Positions 16,970-36,769 of a DNA stretch of 36,769 bases are shown here, piece by piece. The first letter of the stretch is position 1. Each line of letters opens with the position of its first letter. The stretch is from positions 1 to 36,769 of the IMG/VR virus record IMGVR_UViG_3300037851_001075; one strand, 5' to 3'. The stretch is from a virus. Lineage: Duplodnaviria; Caudoviricetes. The notes under the pieces were generated by a model. That model saw nothing but the letters and a program-made list of their open reading frames with translations, was not told the origin of the DNA and did no database searches. The position numbers and the translations under genes were made by a program.

Positions 16970-17547
16970 AATGCGCCTACATCTACGCCCTTTTCAGCGA
17001 AGAACTTTTCAAGCACGCTCATCTTATCGAGCAGTTTCTTCGCTATCTCGTTGTCGGCGCTTTCCGTTTTTATTAAACCCGCTACCCCTATGTTCTGTGT
17101 GCTTTGTCCTGTTTCAAGGCGGTAAATATCGTAGTTTACTTTTACGATTTTTGACAGATCGCCGATCGAAGCGTCAGCCAATTTCTGCGGCGTGATCGCG
17201 GCAAGGGCGTATGCAAGGCGATCCTTCGCGGCAAGTTGAAGGTTATCCCTTACCTTCTCGATCGCAACGCTGCTTGCGCTTTCATTGAACGCTTTTTCAA
17301 TGAAAGTTTTCAGCGGGGACACCATAATCTTATCGAGTATTCGGACAACGTATCGTTTATCGCGCCCTACGATCGCAGCGATTTCGCGTTCGGACTTTGC
17401 CTGCTTGCGCAGGACGTAAACCGCCTTGACTTCATCAAGCGACATTTTCTTTGCCGCCATAGGGTTAAGAATAGACAGTTCGTCTTCCGACAGATTACCG
17501 TCATTGATTATTTTCGGAAGAGCAGACGGGTTGCCTATATTCGCCAT
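16966..17547 (-). CDS. terS: Probable terminase small subunit (HTH), 193 aa
   Basis: HTH SEREIAAIVGRDKRYVVRIL and C-terminal RLETGQSTQNI. Overlaps the terL start. Confidence 0.7.
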   Translation of the reverse strand: MANIGNPSALPKIINDGNLSEDELSILNPMAAKKMSLDEVKAVYVLRKQAKSEREIAAIVGRDKRYVVRILDKIMVSPLKTFIEKAFNESASSVAIEKVRDNLQLAAKDRLAYALAAITPQKLADASIGDLSKIVKVNYDIYRLETGQSTQNIGVAGLIKTESADNEIAKKLLDKMSVLEKFFAEKGVDVGAL

Positions 17548-17551
17548 AGGA

Positions 17552-17989
17552 TCACCCGTTGCCCGTGATTATGAAAAAGTCCCGCGCGGAATAAACCACC
17601 CTGCCCGTAGAACTTTTATTTGCAAGGCGTTTCCCGACAAGGATCTTTTCCGTTCGGAACGCCTTTGCCGTGATCGCAGACGCAAACAGAAAGATGTCCT
17701 TCGGTATTCGTTCGAGTATGGACTTTGCTTCGATGTCCTTGATCGGATAGACGCGGTTATGAAGGATATTGATCCCTTCAATTTTTTTCATAATTGGGTT
17801 TTTGACTTTGACCTTAAAGAGTTCAGCGATCGTTTCATCGGCAGGGGGAAGTTCTGTGCCGTCATCGAAGAAAACAGGATAGGGCGCGGAATTGACTATC
17901 AACGCGCCGTTGATCAGGAACGCTTGAAGACGCAGCGTATCGCCGAGCGCCGTCTTGACCTTAACTTCCTTGCAAATTGCCGTTGTCAT
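17552..17989 (-). CDS. Hypothetical protein, first gene of the late operon (~145 aa)
   Basis: ATG 17989 preceded by AAAAAACGAAAGGCGGAG and a sigma70 promoter. Confidence 0.7.
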   Translation of the reverse strand: MTTAICKEVKVKTALGDTLRLQAFLINGALIVNSAPYPVFFDDGTELPPADETIAELFKVKVKNPIMKKIEGINILHNRVYPIKDIEAKSILERIPKDIFLFASAITAKAFRTEKILVGKRLANKSSTGRVVYSARDFFIITGNG

Positions 17990-18015
17990 CGTGTCTCCGC
18001 CTTTCGTTTTTTGCA

Positions 18016-18044
18016 AGCATATCAGACGGGCAGGAACTTGTCAA
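18016..18044 (-). promoter_or_regulatory. sigma70-type promoter of the leftward (late) operon
   Basis: TTGACA (18044-18039), 17-bp spacer, TATGCT (18021-18016). Confidence 0.8.
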
Positions 18045-18297
18045 CAATTATTTCACAGTTCGTCAACATTTTATCCACAGGGCAAATTACAGAAAACGCC
18101 GCGCCGAAAAGGATCTTCTGGGTTATCCACTTATCCACCGCTACAACAACATCTACAAGGTTTTAAGTATTTCTTAAATACAAAGAACTTGTAGTAGTTG
18201 TATAGCGCGCCCAAAAATGTGGATAACCACCTAAAACGCATACAGGACAAGGAAAAGATATCCACAAAGTTATACACATCTATCCACAAAACCCACA
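18038..18297. other. oriC-like replication origin: DnaA-box clusters with an AT-rich core
   Basis: Consensus boxes TTATCCACA 18071-18079, TGTGGATAA 18218-18226 and TTATACACA 18270-18278. One-mismatch boxes at 18049, 18123, 18131, 18258 and 18280; more degenerate ones at 18038, 18060 and 18289. AT-rich 18161-18190. Confidence 0.8.
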
Positions 18298-19460
18298 GCG
18301 GCGCGGGGAAAGCGCAGGAAACGCCCGTAATTACAGGCATACGGCGCGAAGCGCCCCGCCGCAAAACGGCAGGAAGACGCAGAAAACGCCGCCGCCGCCG
18401 CACAAAAAGACAGAACAACAGCCCCACGAACGAACGCGGCGCGCCCCCCGCGCGGAAAGATCCGTCTTGTTGTTTCAGGGCGCGAAGCGCCCGCGCGATT
18501 TTTTTCCCCCACGCCCCCTGAACAACAGCCCACAGACACCCACGCAGGACGCAGCAGAAGCCCTTTACAGCCACGATCTCGCCACGCCCCACACCTGACT
18601 ACCCCTGCCCCAATAAAACGCAAGGACAGCCCCTTGCCGCCTGCGGCAGCCATACGCCTGACGCGGCTCTCAACACCGTTTCCCACAATTACAGATACAC
18701 GCAAACCCGAAGGGACGGTCTTTATCAAAAAAAATGAGCGCCTTCCCACTGCTCTTTTTTTTTATGCGCGCCTAAAAACGATATCCGTTTGATCACGAAG
18801 GCATTTTATTGGCAACCGTGATCTTGAAGCCCCGCCGCCCCCCTTATTTCAGCGCGTATGTGCGTGTTCAAGCGTCTGCGACAAGACCGCCGCGAAACTT
18901 GCCGCGCGTGTCCGTGTATGCGATCGGCTTGTTATCCTTTGCTTGCCTTGTGCTTCATCGCTTCGCTTGCTTCCCTGCGGCGCGGCGCGTGCGGCGGGCG
19001 GGCGCGCTGCGGGCGGCAGAAGACGGGCGGCGCGTGTCCGTGTCCGTGTCCGTGAAGGCGGCAGCAGATAAGGGATAAATACAAAGGCGAAAGCAAAAAC
19101 ACGGAAGGAAGGCGGCGCGGGCGCGTAAAGCCGCCCGCTTGCCTTCCCCTTATAACACATAAGGGCTTTTCATACTGTCTTTATGGATCGGCGGGCTTTT
19201 ACTGCGCGGGCGGGCGGCGATCTTTTCGGCGGGCTTCCCTGCTTTCATACGGCGCGGCGCTTCCGCGCCCGCGATCACGGGCGGCGCGGCTTTCAGCGCG
19301 GCGGCTTCCCTTCCCTGATACTTTCACAGCGGGCGGGCGCGGCAGGATCACGGCGCGCGCGATCATACCCGCGCGGGCGCGCGTTTACCTTTTCGGCGGC
19401 GGCGGGCGCTTGCTTTTTTTTTTACTGTCATTATGGCGCGCGCTGCCCTTCCTTTCCGCA

Positions 19461-19478
19461 TGTTAGTTTATACTAACA
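19461..19478. promoter_or_regulatory. Operator-like palindrome TGTTAGT-TTAT-ACTAACA
   Basis: Perfect 7-4-7 inverted repeat, an AT-rich island ~60 bp upstream of the early promoter -35. Confidence 0.5.
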
Positions 19479-19518
19479 AGCAGCGCCGCGCGCGGCTTCC
19501 TTTTCGCGGGCAAGTGTG

Positions 19519-19569
19519 AAAAGATTTTTAAAAATAATACTTGACAAAACAGGCGCGCGCTAGTATAAT
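19519..19569 (+). promoter_or_regulatory. Consensus sigma70 early promoter with AT-rich UP region
   Basis: TTGACA 19541-19546, 17 bp, TATAAT 19564-19569. A/T tract upstream. Confidence 0.9.
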
Positions 19570-23122: not shown

Positions 23123-23629
23123 ATGAAAAAAGAAAAGTTTAAAGAGCATTATGAAAAACGGATCAAGGAACTTTACGCGCACAAGCAGAAGGAAGACGGG
23201 ATCAAGAAGGCGCTTCAAGAAAGGATCGACACGCTGCTTTCCTTCATCGAAGTTTACACGGAAGCGCACAAGGCGGGCGATCAGAAGCGGCTTGATCAGG
23301 CAGCCGCGCAAGTGGTAGCCGCAGCGGATCAGGCGCGGCAGGCGCTTGATGATCTCGCGGAACTTGTCAAAAAGATCATTGGCTTTTCGTTCGGGCTTTT
23401 TGTCTTCACTGTCAACAAGGGATATGATCCCGAAATAAGAAACAAAGGACGGGACGGGCTGAAACAGTTGAAGATCGACAAGGAAAAATATCTTGCGGAT
23501 CTTCATTACAAGCGCGCCGTAATAGACAGGGCGAAAAACGCGGCGCTTTCCAAAACTATCGGCGTTGGAGTTTCGCGCGAAGAAGCGCAGAAGGTCAGGG
23601 ATCACGATGAAGAAAAAAAGAACAGTTAA
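23123..23629 (+). CDS. Hypothetical helical protein, 168 aa
   Basis: SD GAAAGGTAGG. Codon style matches its neighbours. Confidence 0.7.
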   Translation: MKKEKFKEHYEKRIKELYAHKQKEDGIKKALQERIDTLLSFIEVYTEAHKAGDQKRLDQAAAQVVAAADQARQALDDLAELVKKIIGFSFGLFVFTVNKGYDPEIRNKGRDGLKQLKIDKEKYLADLHYKRAVIDRAKNAALSKTIGVGVSREEAQKVRDHDEEKKNS

Positions 23630-25994: not shown

Positions 25995-27515
25995 ATGGAA
26001 GAAAACAAGCAAGCCGCCGAAACCACAACGGCGCTGATCCACGCAGAACTTGAAAAGGAAGAAGGCGTTCTTAACCGCGAACAGATCTACGAAATTATGG
26101 ACAGGATCGATGACCTTGCCGTAATGAATAAAGTAGGGCAGGAAGTTCTCGCCGATATGGTATATCGCTTTTCAGATGAAAGCGGCAAGACGGTTCTCGG
26201 CTTGTCAAAGATCGGTGTTGACAGCGCAGCCGCGCAGTTGGCAGGGCAAGGGATCATCATCAGGGAAGTTTCGGTTGACTTTAAAGAAACCCCTGACGTT
26301 TATTATTTCACGGCAAAGGCGGCGCGCTTTGCCCGTGATAACTACGGCAACGAAACAGAACTTGAAAGCGCCTTCGGTTTCAAGCGGCAGCAGAAGCGGC
26401 AGTTTCAGAACGTCCCTGTCCGTGATGAACACGGCAAGAAGATCTATAACACAGACGGCAACGTCAAGCGGGAATATAAGGAAGTTGAAAACAAGTTCGC
26501 CTTTGAGCAGGGCGGGATCAAGGCGGTAAGGAACGCGAAGCGCCGCTTGATCGGCGAAAGTTTAATCAAGCGCCTGATCGAAGCGAAGTTAAATCAGGGC
26601 AAAGTGCAGGACATAAAGGTAAAACAGATCGCAGATGAAGCGGACTACTACAATAAAGACGGAAAGAAGATCGATCCCGCAGAAGCGAAGAAGGCGGCGG
26701 ACGCAAAGGCGGCAGCAGATCTTAAAGAGTATGAAGAGATATATAAAAAGTTCTCTTCCGATTTTGTTGCGTCCGTGATAAACGTCAAGTATAATGTGAA
26801 AAGGTTGCGGGATATTCCGCTTGACAAACTGAAAGCGGATCTTCCCGCCCTTCTCAAAGCATACGAAGATCACAAAACAGGAACAGGCGCGGCGGTAAAA
26901 AAAGGCATTACCCCTTCCAATGATCCCCAAACCCCCGCCGCCGCGCCTGCTTCCGCCCAAATCCCGCCGCCTGCGCCTGCTGTTTCGGCTACGGCTACGG
27001 ACGGGAAGGCGGAATATAAATATACTCCAAACAAGGACAGCGCCGAAGGGCTTCCCTTACTTGTTGAAAAGATACAAGGCGGGCGGATCGCGTCAAGGTA
27101 TGAGATCGCCCGCAGTGCAGACGGAAAACTTATGTGTTCCTGCCCTGCCCGCAAAGAGTGCAAGCACATCAAGGAAGCGGGCAACGTGCTTGAACTTTAC
27201 AGGGAGTTTAAGAAGGCGGAAGGAACGCCGCCGCCCGTAGCGAAGCCGTCAGCCGCGCCCGCGAAAACCTTCCCTTCCTTTGATCGTAAGAAGTATGAAG
27301 CGATCAAAGACGCGGAAGGAATACCCGCAGCCCTGTGCAAGTATTTGCAGGAAGTTCACGCGTTTCGTGGGGCAGCCCTGTTTAATCTGATCACAAAACT
27401 TGCAGGCAAGAAGAGTTTCAACGACATAACAGAAAAGGACTACAAGCAAGTATGGGAATATCAGATCTTCGGGAAGTCAACAGAAGAACTTACGGCGGTT
27501 TTAAATGCAAAATAA
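25995..27515 (+). CDS. Probable single-strand annealing protein (Rad52/RecT-like fold) with SWIM Zn finger, 506 aa
   Basis: GLSKIGV...FTAKA...FAFEQGGIKAVRNAKRRLI SSAP-like helix and SWIM motif CSCP..ECKHI. Lies next to an exonuclease. Confidence 0.55.
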   Translation: MEENKQAAETTTALIHAELEKEEGVLNREQIYEIMDRIDDLAVMNKVGQEVLADMVYRFSDESGKTVLGLSKIGVDSAAAQLAGQGIIIREVSVDFKETPDVYYFTAKAARFARDNYGNETELESAFGFKRQQKRQFQNVPVRDEHGKKIYNTDGNVKREYKEVENKFAFEQGGIKAVRNAKRRLIGESLIKRLIEAKLNQGKVQDIKVKQIADEADYYNKDGKKIDPAEAKKAADAKAAADLKEYEEIYKKFSSDFVASVINVKYNVKRLRDIPLDKLKADLPALLKAYEDHKTGTGAAVKKGITPSNDPQTPAAAPASAQIPPPAPAVSATATDGKAEYKYTPNKDSAEGLPLLVEKIQGGRIASRYEIARSADGKLMCSCPARKECKHIKEAGNVLELYREFKKAEGTPPPVAKPSAAPAKTFPSFDRKKYEAIKDAEGIPAALCKYLQEVHAFRGAALFNLITKLAGKKSFNDITEKDYKQVWEYQIFGKSTEELTAVLNAK

Positions 27516-27681: not shown

Positions 27682-28962
27682 ATGGAAAAGGAAACAAACG
27701 TAGTCAAGGAAAACACAGGCACGGCAAGGAAGGCAAAGTATAAAGATACTGTCTTCTCGTTCAGCAAGATCAGCGACTTCCTTTTTTGCCCGAAGAGATA
27801 TAAGCATAAGTTTATAGACAACGTGAAGGAAGCGTCAAACGTCTTCAAGGACTACGGCTTGAAGATACACGATCTATCCGATCAGGCGGTAAAGAAGAAC
27901 GGCACGATCGACCACGAAACAGCCGCAGACATATTCAGAAAGAACGGCTTGAACGAATTGGACATATCGCGCGGGCTTGCTTATATGGAATATTTAAGCA
28001 AGTATTCAAACATACTTTCCGAATACCGCTTCGAACTAAAACTTAAACGCGGGATCAGCGTTGAGTTTCACATAGACAGGATCTTCTTCGATGAGTATGG
28101 AACTTGCTTCATACAAGACTTAAAGACAAGCCCGCAGCCGCTTGATGAAGAGCAGATCGAAGCGGATCTTCAACTTGATATTTACTGTTGGGCTTTCGTG
28201 GAATACCTGAAACAGATCCTTCCTGATATAAAGAAGGAACTTGCCTTCCTGACAGACAAAAAGAAAACCGTTGACGCTGCGGCGCAGCAGGCGAAGCCGC
28301 AGACAAACGAACAACTTGAACTGCTAACGGAAGGTATGCGCTTACAGAACGAAATAAACTTCCGAAACAACCTGATCAACACAGCAGGCGAAGGAAAGAT
28401 CGTTAAGGGTATATGGCTTTGGCGCTATAACTACAAGGCGGAAGTGGAACACAAGCGCAGCGATCTGTCAGATCAACTGATCTATACGATCGAACACATC
28501 AAGAAGTGCAAAGAGTTTACGCCAAAGGCAAACCGCTTCTGTGCGGACTGTGATTATTTCAGGACTTGTTATCCCGTGCCGATCACAAAGTCATACAAAG
28601 AACTGAAAGCCCTTGAAGCACACTACAAGAAACTTGCGGAAGACAGGAAGAACGAGATAGTGCAGGACGGCTTTCAGATCGGATCAAATCTTGTCAGCGA
28701 CAACGGCACACAGGTTTACATCAAGGAAACAACGTCAAAGGAATACGATCCGAAGGCGATTAAGGAAATCGTTGAAAAGGCAGGGCTTGATCCCTTCGAG
28801 TTCTTGAAGCCCGATAACGCAGCCGTCAACAGGGAACAGAAGAAGAAGTCAAAGCGCTTTACGATCGAGCCGATCAGCGTTTCGGTTTCACTACGCATAG
28901 ACGCGAAGGACAAACTAAAAGAAGGGGGCGATGATAATGCCGATAACGAAGGAAAGGCGTAA
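27682..28962 (+). CDS. PD-(D/E)xK exonuclease, Cas4/AddB/RecB-like, with Fe-S cysteines
   Basis: SFSKI..FLFCPKRY, HIDRI, QDLKT, QLDIY, CADCDYFRTC. Confidence 0.85.
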   Translation: MEKETNVVKENTGTARKAKYKDTVFSFSKISDFLFCPKRYKHKFIDNVKEASNVFKDYGLKIHDLSDQAVKKNGTIDHETAADIFRKNGLNELDISRGLAYMEYLSKYSNILSEYRFELKLKRGISVEFHIDRIFFDEYGTCFIQDLKTSPQPLDEEQIEADLQLDIYCWAFVEYLKQILPDIKKELAFLTDKKKTVDAAAQQAKPQTNEQLELLTEGMRLQNEINFRNNLINTAGEGKIVKGIWLWRYNYKAEVEHKRSDLSDQLIYTIEHIKKCKEFTPKANRFCADCDYFRTCYPVPITKSYKELKALEAHYKKLAEDRKNEIVQDGFQIGSNLVSDNGTQVYIKETTSKEYDPKAIKEIVEKAGLDPFEFLKPDNAAVNREQKKKSKRFTIEPISVSVSLRIDAKDKLKEGGDDNADNEGKA

Positions 28963-29656: not shown

Positions 29657-29869
29657 GTGATACAAGTGGAAAGTTTGATCAGGTTGAAAGACGTTGCGAA
29701 GATATTAAGCATACACCCGAAGTATGTTTCAAACTTCATCAAGAAGCACGGCATACCAAAGCAGCGGGTAAACGCGCGGCTTGTCTATGTAAAGGAAGCC
29801 GATCTTCAAACGTTCTTGAACAAGAACATCGAAGAGAACAACAAAAAAAACGCGGGGGTTAAAAAATGA
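29657..29869 (+). CDS. Xis/AlpA-like HTH DNA-binding protein
   Basis: LIRLKDVAKILSIHPKYV...GIP...VYVKEADLQTFL. Confidence 0.75.
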   Translation: MIQVESLIRLKDVAKILSIHPKYVSNFIKKHGIPKQRVNARLVYVKEADLQTFLNKNIEENNKKNAGVKK

Positions 29870-30279
29870 ACGTAGCAAAAGAGAAGCACGCCGTTAAAAG
29901 GTATGAAGTTGCAGCGCTGATCAAGGCGCTGCGTATGACGCATAGGGCAAAGATAGACAGGGCAACACGAAAGGATCTGCGCCCCCTTATAAGCGGGCTT
30001 CTTGGAAGGGCAATATCTATGCGAAAGTTGTCTTGGATCAAGGAAATTGCAAACGAGCATTTACGAAGGGTTATTATCGGATCAGATGATCGCGGTTGGT
30101 ATATCATCAAATCGCGGGAAGACTTCGTGAGTGCTTACCACACCTACGAAAGCAGACGGAACGATTTATCGCAGAAGTTATCGCTGCTTTCAGGAAAATA
30201 TACGGCGATCTTCGGCGGACAACTAACGCTTCCCCTGCAAGACAAGCAAGGAAAGGGGATCAAGTTCACCTTTGGATAA
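29866..30279 (+). CDS. Probable winged-helix phage protein, 137 aa
   Basis: IIGSDDRGWYI..SREDF pattern. ATGA-type overlap with the previous gene. Confidence 0.55.
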   Translation: MNVAKEKHAVKRYEVAALIKALRMTHRAKIDRATRKDLRPLISGLLGRAISMRKLSWIKEIANEHLRRVIIGSDDRGWYIIKSREDFVSAYHTYESRRNDLSQKLSLLSGKYTAIFGGQLTLPLQDKQGKGIKFTFG

Positions 30280-30786: not shown

Positions 30787-31007
30787 GTTTCTTTGGTATT
30801 TCGAGATATAACAAATCGCTTCAAGAAGCGCAGGATCTTATAAACGATAAGGACGCTGACAAGATCCACGATCTTGTGAAGCGGGGTATGTCTTACATAT
30901 CAGCCCGAAAAAAAGTAAAGGGGGAAGTCAAAGATGAGAAGGTTTCGAGCGCGGAAGAAAGGCGGACAGGAAACAGGAATACAGACAGCGATCCTGTCAT
31001 ACCTTAA
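30783..31007 (+). CDS. Hypothetical protein (~74 aa)
   Basis: GTGA overlap with the previous stop. SD GGAAGGAAG. Confidence 0.5.
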   Translation: MSFFGISRYNKSLQEAQDLINDKDADKIHDLVKRGMSYISARKKVKGEVKDEKVSSAEERRTGNRNTDSDPVIP

Positions 31008-31341
31008 CGCTATCGGTATTCTTGCTTGGCGGCAAAGTAATCATGCCGTCCCTATGCTGATCGGCGGCGAGATAGTTTACAGGAAGGATTACTTCCGCTT
31101 GCGTGGCGTGGGCGATATAACTGGCATACTCTATGACGGCAAGCGCCTTGAAGTTGAAGTCAAGGCAGAAGGAAAAAAACAAAGCGATGATCAGATACAT
31201 TTTGAAAGTTTAATCAACGAGAACGGCGGGATATATATCCTTGCTTACAGCGTTGATGACGTAGAAAATGCCCTTCACGCGAAGGGCTACATAATAAAAG
31301 ACGGAAGGGGTGTAGTATGTTTAAACAAATCAACGAAGTAG
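30934..31341 (+). CDS. VRR-NUC family nuclease (probable Holliday junction resolvase)
   Basis: ETGIQTAILSYL, GVGDITG, EVEVK, SDDQIHF, GGIYILAYSVDDV. Confidence 0.85.
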   Translation: MRRFRARKKGGQETGIQTAILSYLNAIGILAWRQSNHAVPMLIGGEIVYRKDYFRLRGVGDITGILYDGKRLEVEVKAEGKKQSDDQIHFESLINENGGIYILAYSVDDVENALHAKGYIIKDGRGVVCLNKSTK

Positions 31342-31791: not shown

Positions 31792-31867
31792 TGCGGGGTA
31801 GATCAATAGGTAGATCAACGCGCTTTGAACGCGTAGGCTGCAAGTTCGATCCTTGCCCCCGCAGCCA
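31792..31867 (+). tRNA. tRNA-Gln, anticodon UUG, CCA encoded
   Basis: 76-nt cloverleaf: acceptor TGCGGGG/CCCCGCA, D stem GATC/GATC, anticodon arm ACGCG-CTTTGAA-CGCGT, T arm GCAAG-TTCGATC-CTTGC, G73-CCA. Confidence 0.95.
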
Positions 31868-33591: not shown

Positions 33592-33903
33592 CTATTTTTT
33601 TATGTAATTGACGTAGGCAAGGGCGATCGTTGACAGCATAGTCAACAACGTGAAAACAGCCGTGATAAGTGTAGTGATCATCAACTTGCCGAAACCGTCT
33701 ATTTTCTTAAATATCTCTTTGTCTGTTTCTTTCATATCTTTTACGTCCCCTTTCAGCGTTGTAATGTCTGTTTCACGGCTTTCCTTTTCCTGCTTAATTT
33801 GAAGTTCAAGCAGATCACAGACAGAACAGTTATCCACCGCCTTCTTTGCGGCTTCATCTGCTATCTTTTCGACTTTCAACAAGTCCCCGTTTTCAAGCGT
33901 CAT
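33592..33903 (-). CDS. Coiled-coil protein with C-terminal TM (XhlA-like / holin-associated)
   Basis: ATG 33903 in a TAATG overlap with the upstream stop. TM LMITTLITAVFTLLTMLSTIALAYV. Confidence 0.65.
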   Translation of the reverse strand: MTLENGDLLKVEKIADEAAKKAVDNCSVCDLLELQIKQEKESRETDITTLKGDVKDMKETDKEIFKKIDGFGKLMITTLITAVFTLLTMLSTIALAYVNYIKK

Positions 33904-36769
33904 TAGTAGTTTACTTCCTTCCCTGTCAGTGCGGGCTTCGAGAAAAGCGCCCATTTGATATCGCCTGTATCGATCGCGCGGGCAAGGCGTTTGATCGCTA
34001 CGCCTGCGGGGACAATGTTCCTTCCCATAAGTTTATAGAACTTCTCAAAGTCAGCGTCCATAAGAGCGCCAAAACCTTCAAATACTATGTTAAATATCGG
34101 GCTTTTATCAGGACGCGGGATCAACTGTTTATTAGCCATAACGTTAAACATCGAGATATCAAAGAAAGTTTTAAGCAGCGCGACAGACGCATACGTCAGC
34201 AGCGCCCAACGGACAACGGCAAGCCGCCCTTCATTGTTTAATTTGTTTATATATTGAACTCCGTCCCCGCCGTCCCGCGTGATCTGTATGAACTTCTTGA
34301 CGTAAGGATTTTTCATATCCTTCGTTGCCTTCATAAGTTCGCCGATTAACTTCCACTGCTTTATTGTATAACTCGAAAGGTGATATAATGACTTTGCAAA
34401 GTTTCCTTTCAACATACGTTCGGTGTGGATCGGCGACCAAAACTGCTGCGTAAAGCGCGACATCTCGCCCGCGATCTGATTTATTTCATATAGACCTACC
34501 CTGTCTTTCCCCGTTGCTTTGAGTATATTCTTCGACATCTCATAAGACCAAACGCGCGTGAAAAACTCGCCCGCCTTTACCGTAAAAAGTGTGCCTTCAA
34601 GAACTTTATTCCACGCGTTTTGCCAAACGCCGCCCTTCATAGCAGCGCTTTCGGGCGCGTCCCCTATAACCCTTTCAAGCGTAGCAAACACACCTTCGCG
34701 TTTCAGAGCAGCCCGCGCCTTCGGATCAAGAACGGTTGCCAATGTTTTAAATAGCCCGCCGCTGATCGCTTGTATAGATTTTAAAGTAGGTATAAGCCCC
34801 GCGTGCGTAGGCATAAGCGAAAGCATAGTAAGCGCCTGCGTGATCTGCAAAATGAAGTTCTGTATGTTTACTCCAAGCACAGCCGAGTAATGCAGCATTT
34901 TTACGTTGCCGACCAACTTGCTGATCGGAGTTAGTCCGATAACGTCCGAAGGTTTGAGCGTTCTCTTTTCCCACGCCTTCTTTGCTTCGTTCCACACTTC
35001 CGCTTCAAAACGGAATATGTTCTCGTTTTTCGCATAACCCTTTTTCAGTTCGGGGTTGCGGATCTTCATCTTCTTCGCAAAAAGTGGGTTTTTTAAAACG
35101 CCCCACAGATACGCTATACTGAACGGCTCTTTGCTTGACAGCGCGTCAAGGAAAGCGCGATCGCTTACCTTCTGCGTTGTAGATATCTCTTCAATATGTT
35201 CCTTCACTATGTCTTTTATGTAATTCCACCCCTTCTGATTAAGGGCGGGATCTGTTGCCTTCTTGTCATCAAGCATTTTGATCTGATTATCGAGCGCAGA
35301 TATCTCGCTTTCGATAACGTCCTTCGGACGGGCAGGCGTTTCGCTTTCAAGTTCTACTACTTTCGCAGCCCGTTCTTCGAGTTTTGCCTGTATGTTATTA
35401 TCTATCTCTTCAAGCCACTCGCCCGCTTGCTTTGCTTTGTTTAACGCTACTTCTCTTACCGTATTAAGCAGTGTTCGATCCGCGTCAAGAAACGCCTTCT
35501 TGAAAGCGGCTTCGGTATAAATGCGCAGCGCTTCTACTGGATCTTTCAAGTGCCGCAAGTTCGCTTCTCTTTCAAGCAAGAACGGATCGAACGCTTCCCC
35601 AAAAACAGCGTTCTTGATCTTCATCTGATCAGCCGTGAGCAAGTTCTGCTTGCCTTCCTTTATGCGGTTTGCTATCTCTTCAAGGACTAAATGCGGAAGG
35701 TATTGTTCCCTGTATTTCGCCTGCTCTTTAAGATCAAACATATCAGCGAAGGTGTCTGTTATCTCTTTGATCCTATTGCCGATCTCTAATTCCTTCGGAG
35801 TTCCTACCTTGTTTTCAAGATCGATCTTTTTGCTTTGATAGTCATCGAAGAACTTTGCCTTATCGATCTTGTGCTGCTTGAATAGTTTGTCGATCGCGTC
35901 TATCTTCGCAGCGAAATCTGTGCGGGCGCGGCTTTGAAGTTTCCAAAAACTGTTTTCTATGTTTGCGAGTTCAGGAAGCCCCATTTCCCGCAGAAAGTCC
36001 ATAATATTGCGATAGTCAAGGATCGATATCGGAACTCTTACCACTTTGTCTATGATGTTTTTTGCTACATAAGAAACGAGATCTGTTAGTTTGAACTGTT
36101 TCAGGTATTCAAGCCCCACTTCCTTTACGTCTGCAAGGCGGGATAGTTCTTCTACCGTCAACGGCTCGCCTTTTGCGGCTTTTTCAAGTGCGATCTTTTC
36201 AAGTTGCTTGTCATATTCAAGCGTGCCTTTCTGCGCTGTCGGCTTTGGCGCTGCTTCGCCCTTCGGCTTTATAATCTCGGCAGAAGGGATAGGCGCGGCG
36301 GCAGCGATCTGTGTCCCTTCTACACCGCTTGCTTCGGGGATCGGCGCTTCGCCTTCCGTTGCAGAAGATCTCGCGGCGCTTACGGCTTCGTTTCCCTTTC
36401 CTGTTGCTATGTCTGCTGCTTCTTTCATATTTCCTAAACCCTGCCCTTTGAACTGTGCAGCCCTTTGCGCTATGTCTGCCCTGATAGCGTCAGGCAAAAC
36501 GCCGCCGTATTTTAAAACCTTTCCTGTTTGAAGACCTACTTCGCGCCCGATCTCGTTGTAAAGCGCCGCGTCCCACTCTTCCGCGATCGCGCGCTTGATA
36601 TAATCAGGCGCTTGCTTTGTTTGTCTATATGCTTCGCGATCGCGGACTATTTTTGCTACTGCTGCTGCTGCCTGCCGCGTGGATCTTGTCCGTTCTGCGG
36701 GCAACTTGCCGCCGCCGCGTGTCTTTTCGATCTTGTTTGTGAGCGCGTTCCTTTGATCATTAAGTTCAG
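33903..36769 (-). CDS. C-terminal part (>950 codons) of the large probable ejection protein; open to the right edge
   Basis: The frame stays open from 36767 (ELNDQRNALTNKIEK...) through the track's TTG at 36704. Helical, with hydrophobic C-terminal segments as in podophage ejection proteins. Confidence 0.7.
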   Translation of the reverse strand, partial: ELNDQRNALTNKIEKTRGGGKLPAERTRSTRQAAAAVAKIVRDREAYRQTKQAPDYIKRAIAEEWDAALYNEIGREVGLQTGKVLKYGGVLPDAIRADIAQRAAQFKGQGLGNMKEAADIATGKGNEAVSAARSSATEGEAPIPEASGVEGTQIAAAAPIPSAEIIKPKGEAAPKPTAQKGTLEYDKQLEKIALEKAAKGEPLTVEELSRLADVKEVGLEYLKQFKLTDLVSYVAKNIIDKVVRVPISILDYRNIMDFLREMGLPELANIENSFWKLQSRARTDFAAKIDAIDKLFKQHKIDKAKFFDDYQSKKIDLENKVGTPKELEIGNRIKEITDTFADMFDLKEQAKYREQYLPHLVLEEIANRIKEGKQNLLTADQMKIKNAVFGEAFDPFLLEREANLRHLKDPVEALRIYTEAAFKKAFLDADRTLLNTVREVALNKAKQAGEWLEEIDNNIQAKLEERAAKVVELESETPARPKDVIESEISALDNQIKMLDDKKATDPALNQKGWNYIKDIVKEHIEEISTTQKVSDRAFLDALSSKEPFSIAYLWGVLKNPLFAKKMKIRNPELKKGYAKNENIFRFEAEVWNEAKKAWEKRTLKPSDVIGLTPISKLVGNVKMLHYSAVLGVNIQNFILQITQALTMLSLMPTHAGLIPTLKSIQAISGGLFKTLATVLDPKARAALKREGVFATLERVIGDAPESAAMKGGVWQNAWNKVLEGTLFTVKAGEFFTRVWSYEMSKNILKATGKDRVGLYEINQIAGEMSRFTQQFWSPIHTERMLKGNFAKSLYHLSSYTIKQWKLIGELMKATKDMKNPYVKKFIQITRDGGDGVQYINKLNNEGRLAVVRWALLTYASVALLKTFFDISMFNVMANKQLIPRPDKSPIFNIVFEGFGALMDADFEKFYKLMGRNIVPAGVAIKRLARAIDTGDIKWALFSKPALTGKEVNY

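Follow-up and report, generated by a model that had tools for sequence, protein, structure and literature searches.

How can a tailed phage start to replicate its DNA when it encodes no recognisable initiator? Phages, in the usual account, supply an initiator of their own, host DnaA only assisting. Plasmids likewise bring an initiator along that DnaA only assists, according to excerpts of PMC10797057. The question is raised by a 36,769-nucleotide stretch of tailed-phage DNA (hereafter the window), in which a cluster of DnaA boxes resembling a bacterial oriC had been predicted and proposed to be fired by host DnaA alone. If this is true, a phage of this kind would represent a further mode of replication, tied to the host DnaA-ATP level and competing with the chromosome, and such a mode would account for part of the large number of environmental phages without visible replication genes. 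No description of such an element in phages was found in the literature searched, the scope of which leaves out most subscription papers.

The DnaA-box cluster and its surroundings

Seven boxes with at most one mismatch from TTATCCACA lie within 300 bp, at positions 18071-18288, whereas the best 300-bp stretch elsewhere in the window holds one; the only two perfect copies of TTATCCACA in the whole window are both inside the cluster, and none of 200 order-3 Markov simulations reached seven boxes. The box scan thus found the cluster to be unique in the genome, and the three boxes that had been read as exact matches to TTWTNCACA, at 18071 (+), 18218 (-) and 18270 (+), were all recovered. The predicted total of about 11 boxes was too generous: eight have at most one mismatch to TTWTNCACA and 11 are reached only by allowing two to three mismatches, among the extra ones 18038/18039, where the leftward promoter has its -35 hexamer. 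The cluster, first placed at the point where transcription diverges, occupies the left end of 1.66 kb of intergenic DNA, and the rightward promoter lies about 1.25 kb away (Table 1).

Table 1. Coordinates of the features discussed in the text
Feature	Position	Strand	Remark
Studied stretch of IMGVR_UViG_3300037851_001075	1-36,769	one strand	tailed-phage DNA, Caudoviricetes, uncultured
145-aa orphan ORF, first gene of leftward operon	17552-17989	-	no family; adjoins cluster
Leftward promoter, sigma70-type, TTGACA-17-TATGCT, extended -10	18016-18044	-	10/12 consensus
Weak DnaA-box-like 9-mer	18049-18057	+	1 mismatch to TTWTNCACA, 3 to TTATCCACA
Perfect DnaA box TTATCCACA, distal left	18071-18079	+	one mismatch in relative L005
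Overlapping tandem DnaA-box pair (18123/18131), 8-bp spacing	18123-18139	+	second box perfect in relative
4-nt spacer and left trio-like track (track 18144-18158)	18140-18158	+	five triplets in canonical register
AT-rich core, 28 bp, predicted melting site	18161-18188		18% GC; 6-bp inverted repeat 18167-18181
Right, mirrored trio-like track	18189-18205	-	four C-periodic triplets in a row, two of them canonical trios
GC-rich spacer and perfect DnaA box (18218-18226)	18206-18226	-	faces AT core from right
Three co-oriented distal DnaA boxes (18258, 18270, 18280)	18258-18288	+	
Non-coding spacer, GC-rich, repeat-rich	18298-19540		less conserved
Rightward (early) promoter, sigma70	19541-19569	+	perfect consensus
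ArdC-N, metallopeptidase-like and beta-clamp-like fusion, 821 aa	19943-22408	+	first large early gene
Possible ssDNA-annealing protein	25995-27515	+	weak leads; common to G003
PD-(D/E)XK exonuclease	27682-28962	+	common to relative G003
137-aa orphan early ORF near expected initiator position	29866-30279	+	no family
Endonuclease of Holliday-junction-resolvase type	30934-31341	+	
tRNA-Gln (TTG) gene	31792-31867		end of early operon

In the basal unwinding system (BUS) of bacterial oriC, of which B. subtilis incC is an example, a DnaA-box pair, a spacer, DnaA-trios and an AT tract are found together (excerpts of PMC8287927, PMC6669920, PMC10721633 and PMC10201434). The cluster contains an overlapping tandem box pair at 8-bp spacing, the form found in many bacterial oriCs, and the AT-rich core that had been predicted among the boxes belongs to the weakest 0.1-0.2% of duplex windows, yet is not the single weakest. 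Two tracks border this core. The left track sits in 4-nt register, has the central A on the trio strand in one of its five triplets and carries three TTGT motifs on the minus strand; the right track is shifted by 2 nt from its second triplet on and carries two TTGT motifs on the plus strand, and 18188-18201 is an inverted copy of 18146-18159 with 12 of 14 positions matching. The published rule calls for at least three NAN trios in succession, no more than 16 bp from a box (excerpts of PMC8287927); neither track contains such a run, the longest strict runs being one trio on the left and two on the right, with C-periodic runs of six and four triplets, respectively, instead. Changing the central A of a trio to T lowers unwinding by B. 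subtilis DnaA (excerpts of PMC10721633). The variant triplets of the tracks create TTGT, of which six copies, both strands counted together, are found in 66 bp (top 0.03% of windows). This motif is named as one bound by E. coli DnaA in single-stranded DNA (excerpts of PMC10797057), and its copies in the tracks may be linked to such binding. An IHF consensus was not found at the element, nor was a non-coding RNA family found at the cluster.

The cluster lies directly upstream of the leftward, late promoter, which precedes the packaging and virion operon of orf145, terminase and virion genes, and this position would also fit a different function. The boxes may regulate the adjoining late promoter and/or soak up host DnaA, stalling chromosome replication, in which case the element would be no origin and the phage would replicate by a recombination- or transcription-primed route. 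The first strong box is located 23-26 nt upstream of the -35 element of the pre-terminase promoter both in the window and in G003, a complete phage of 42.5 kb that only a DNA-pattern search brought up, the trios are off-consensus, and DnaA-regulating loci outside oriC, datA and DARS, are described for E. coli (excerpts of PMC13220808). A sink or an operator, however, needs no in-register spacer, track and melting core. We consider a purely regulatory or titrating role a less likely, though serious, alternative, also in view of what is conserved.

Conservation of the element

Two contigs, L004 and L005, represent one related population; they are identical where they overlap and 87-89% identical to the window around the cluster. 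In a single comparison, that of the window with this one relative population, the core at 18123-18226 differs in L005 at 4 of 104 positions versus 170 of 838 in non-coding DNA on its flanks (Fisher p 6e-6); by the same comparison the terminase-small gene differs at 44 of 582 positions. The longest identical run in non-coding DNA, 69 nt at 18143-18211, spans the tracks and the AT core and thus goes beyond the boxes alone, which argues for unwinding, above mere binding. A regulatory or titrating role accounts poorly for the strongest selection being on the tracks and the core: the stretch with the promoter-proximal boxes, 18016-18122, differs at 17 of 107 positions, and the box at 18071 gains a mismatch in the relative. 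The conservation that was to be looked for in relatives is therefore present, the core being nearly invariant, and the same layout recurs in G003, which is syntenic with the window (terminase 31%, capsid 27%, portal 25%) and has, in this order, the promoter, boxes, tandem pair, a CAA-type track and an AT tract, without the mirrored right module. With the tandem pair, the in-register track, the mirrored module and the strong conservation, the likeness to oriC is stronger than first noted.

It is also possible, if somewhat unlikely, that the element is a DnaA-assisted origin which, like the origins of iteron plasmids, still needs an unrecognised phage protein, either an origin-binding initiator or a helicase-loader adaptor. 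Such a protein would bind at the 14-bp inverted repeat and at the palindrome of the AT core, and the invariant stretch does include the atypical trios and the symmetric core. At plasmid origins DnaA boxes assist a Rep protein (excerpts of PMC10797057). An iteron array apart from the DnaA boxes was, however, not found: of the 20 largest repeat families listed, the cluster contains nothing but one box-like pair of 19 nt, 18040/18062.

The element might finally be due to chance, to a chimeric assembly that took in a bacterial oriC, or to capture of what is now a dead relic. Chimeras do occur here. L004 is joined 0.85 kb from the cluster to bacterial DNA (L004:1-3097, with genes that, judged by eye from their translations, are a nucleoside transporter gene and phosphorylase-like). 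We read this join as an assembly chimera and not as integration, since the two parts share only about 20 nt where they meet and L005 carries on as phage sequence. But in run X1 one contig covers 17000-20500 without a difference, run X2 contains 18147-18610, and run X3 contains 17000-19149 and carries the L004/L005 variant at the positions compared by eye. The element lies between phage genes in L004/L005 and in G003, it is under purifying selection, and the record contains no dnaA gene; together with the Markov simulations, this makes an artefact or a relic very improbable, and conservation and the independent assemblies largely refute it.

The spacer at 18298-19540, between the two promoters, is 1.2 kb of low-complexity DNA with many short repeats and hairpins. 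The contig of the relative in run X3 stops at 19149 and L004 breaks at 19135, both inside this spacer, which is possibly a packaging or terminal region. Cumulative GC skew is lowest at 18974, just where the genes change strand, and the skew signals of the window and of G003 are confounded by gene layout; in a codon-level test, none of seven unrelated or unconfounded genomes has a GC4 skew switch at the module (p<0.05).

Replication genes in the window and in other phages

The supposition that the genome is near-complete is supported by inference, against a record that is classed as linear with a CheckV completeness of 43% and has no terminal repeat. Both contig ends fall inside a minus-strand frame, and the homologue P0178 bridges them, its residues 18-410 aligning to the piece 1-1239 (52%) and residues 454-729 to the piece 33903-36767 (54%), with about 41 codons left between the pieces. 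Thus about 120 nt are likely missing and the genome would be about 36.9 kb long, barring an insertion in the gap, an estimate based on this one homologue. The two pieces are probably halves of one gene of about 1400 aa for an internal virion protein; G003 has a single 1730-aa gene at the matching position. The alignments suggest that the genome is likely almost complete and the CheckV value looks wrong for this lineage. The concern that an initiator may be hidden at the junction was addressed in the same way, the predicted gap being probably too small to hold one. Comparison with isolated phages gave no DNA similarity above chance and terminase matches that were all below 60% identity (best 28%), and an IMG/VR search by terminase and capsid protein for close relatives returned distant ones or none. 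Two homologues are labelled as Bacteroidales MAG, a label that may reflect binning.

Pfam and PHROGs were searched with 51 likely genes and NCBIfam with 30, and the PHROGs search was extended to another 144 ORFs; 195 of the 196 listed ORFs were thereby scanned, the 196th being a longer form of one of them. No initiator, loader, helicase, primase, polymerase or integrase was matched in the 195 ORFs, and a six-frame search with phrog_270 and phrog_2514, each of which detected two of four initiator-bearing control phages, found nothing in the window. The original prediction that replication genes are absent stood for these functions and has to be qualified by a beta-clamp-like domain, an exonuclease, a resolvase-type nuclease and a possible annealing protein. 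The clamp-like domain matches phrog_947 (E 9e-10) and TIGR00663 (E 3.5e-4, far below cut-off) and was not found in 25 other module-bearing records. For the possible annealing protein the ESM Atlas gave sub-0.9 leads to Rad52, RecT and Sak and otherwise hypothetical clusters. The two nucleases and the possible annealing protein would suit a recombination-primed route and thus an element that serves for regulation or DnaA titration. The other identified genes encode terminase, a P22-like portal, capsid, endolysin, a Dam-type methylase, HNH and an HTH_17 protein. A Dna2 match (Pfam) on 23123-23629 (E 5e-4) was discounted, as it does not reach the cut-off and coincides with a helical region.

Some 15 of the early ORFs have no known family, and the 145-aa orphan next to the cluster might conceivably be a hidden origin-binding protein. 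AlphaFold models of 29866-30279 (pLDDT 37) and 17552-18016 (pLDDT 42) were too poor for fold searches, and PDB sequence searches were empty. None of the early orphans of the window matched in 26 other phage records compared, 14 of them with such modules, and the initiator families give no match in the window where controls match; both results speak against a dedicated phage protein acting at this element.

Viral records were surveyed with a pattern of a box followed by CTACTACTA, a wrong-strand pattern serving as control. The survey yielded 89 records in 63 groups, 34 of which have at least three boxes nearby, the matched box counted, versus 67 records in 25 groups, four of them with at least three boxes, for the control; the raw record counts (89 vs 67) were uninformative until de-duplicated and scored for neighbouring boxes. 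Forty-four records were checked, 15 of which are at least 90% complete; one of these, 6 kb long, was set aside because its match is likely due to chance. Among the remaining 14, DnaC/IstB was found in one, DnaB in none, a tyrosine integrase in one and a DnaA-domain match in one, the latter being the loader of G003. PHROGs annotation covered seven of the 14 (ORFs of at least 125 aa minus two very long ORFs; 31 chosen ORFs for G003), and five of these seven (G021, G032, G036, G040 and G043) have no recognisable initiator, helicase, primase or polymerase. In G036, which has capsid and portal families in common with the window, the module sits within the early region and at a distance from the terminase genes, a position that speaks against regulation of a late promoter. 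The first 7.4 kb of G040 reappear at the record end (duplicated ORFs). Three viral records of 109-162 kb with textbook oriC modules, G007, G045 (L124, L176) and G009 (L117), gave no DnaB, DnaA, DnaC or tyrosine integrase match.

The other two annotated phages, G039 and G003, combine the module with an initiator-like gene, which favours an origin that still needs a phage protein. G003 encodes a replisome-organizer/DnaD-like protein and a DnaC-like loader (L098:1160-4319), neither of which was found in the window; its initiator-like gene, however, has no iteron repeats of at least 14 nt. G003 also carries GroEL/GroES.

As a control set, 12 capsid relatives with at most two boxes per 300 bp were examined for early-region ORFs only (125 proteins). 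Core replication genes were found in seven of the 12 and none recognisable in five; among those at least 90% complete, five of eight have none. These five, G046, G049, G050, G058 and G061, are complete capsid relatives of 38-43 kb without DnaA boxes, and no intergenic trio run was found in them. The expected anti-correlation between the module and own replication genes is absent, such genes being lacking in five of seven phages with the module and five of eight without it. A missing recognisable initiator therefore does not single out module-bearing phages, and the absence of a match is weak evidence; either initiators can escape profile libraries, as an unrecognised phage protein here would have done, or another route exists. 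Among 80 loci of distant capsid relatives (flanks up to 10 kb) none has at least four boxes per 300 bp.

The proposed origin and known systems

The conservation of the core and tracks, together with the lack of a visible initiator, led us to choose a host-DnaA-fired origin as the best explanation: the element at 18049-18288 may well be the replication origin of the phage, opened by host DnaA without a phage initiator, a reading which, drawn from sequence, we hold as plausible but short of probable. The original proposal of host DnaA alone is backed by the oriC-like anatomy and by the lack of a recognisable initiator; it is weakened by G003, which keeps the element yet encodes an initiator-like gene and a loader, by the off-consensus trios, and by the box-free relatives, which equally lack replication genes. 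The injected genome would circularise, and host DnaA-ATP would bind the distal boxes as well as both proximal sites, which face inward. Starting at the pair 18123/18131 and the box 18218, DnaA would oligomerise onto the trio-like/TTGT tracks, on opposite strands, and the 28-bp core would melt under the oligomers, the open core then recruiting host loader, helicase, primase and polymerase. Later the exonuclease, the possible annealing protein and the resolvase-type nuclease could make concatemers for packaging. Bound DnaA may additionally affect the adjoining late promoter.

More tentatively still, a wide class of tailed phages could be mini-chromosomes with an oriC unwinding module that is fired by host DnaA with no phage initiator, an own initiator or loader being optional; the window would hold a two-sided variant, its mirrored tracks seeding DnaA on both strands. 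Textbook modules are found in 34 viral sequence groups, several of which are better suited to testing than this phage.

A scan of bacterial genomes with a tandem-box pattern gave at least 120 loci, 101 of them distinct. The spacer is 4 nt long in 98 of the 101 (the pattern allowed only 0-4 nt), 100 start with CTACTACTA and none with CAA, and dnaA lies within 1.5 kb in 66 of 120 loci by a crude motif test. With these oriCs and the BUS the phage element has in common a proximal co-oriented box pair, a 4-nt spacer, an in-register track of 3-nt periodicity and an AT tract, as well as the distal boxes 18071, 18258, 18270 and 18280. The box with at most two mismatches that the BUS has beside its unwinding site is represented by the 18123/18131 pair and by 18218. 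The element differs in being on a phage and not beside dnaA/dnaN, in that most of its trios are 3'-GTT-5' where the bacterial ones are 3'-GAT-5', and in having a further track in mirror image, which comes with a perfect box of its own. It is not filed as a BUS member because one defining feature, the run of NAN trios, is lacking.

Closer in layout are the oriCs with an inverted TAGTAG run beyond the AT tract, resembling the right track of the phage (20 of 101, Chloroflexota and Binatia records among them), which share with it the order of a track, about 30 bp of AT-rich DNA and an inverted track, but have the canonical CTACTACTA on the box side. In L330, L331, L342, L351, L373, L381 and others the inverted trio run lies about 30 bp past the AT tract, and these bacterial modules possibly represent a two-sided unwinding design as well. 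Phage origins of the lambda/P1 type use a Rep or O protein with DnaA assistance. These and iteron plasmid origins resemble the phage element as parts of extrachromosomal replicons with DnaA boxes, an AT-rich element and a host replisome; they differ from it in that no Rep/O gene, iterons or own loader were found in the phage. With datA and DARS the element, which is predicted from its letters, has in common that it would be a DnaA-interacting locus outside oriC, and it is distinguished from them by its conserved trio-like tracks and melting core.
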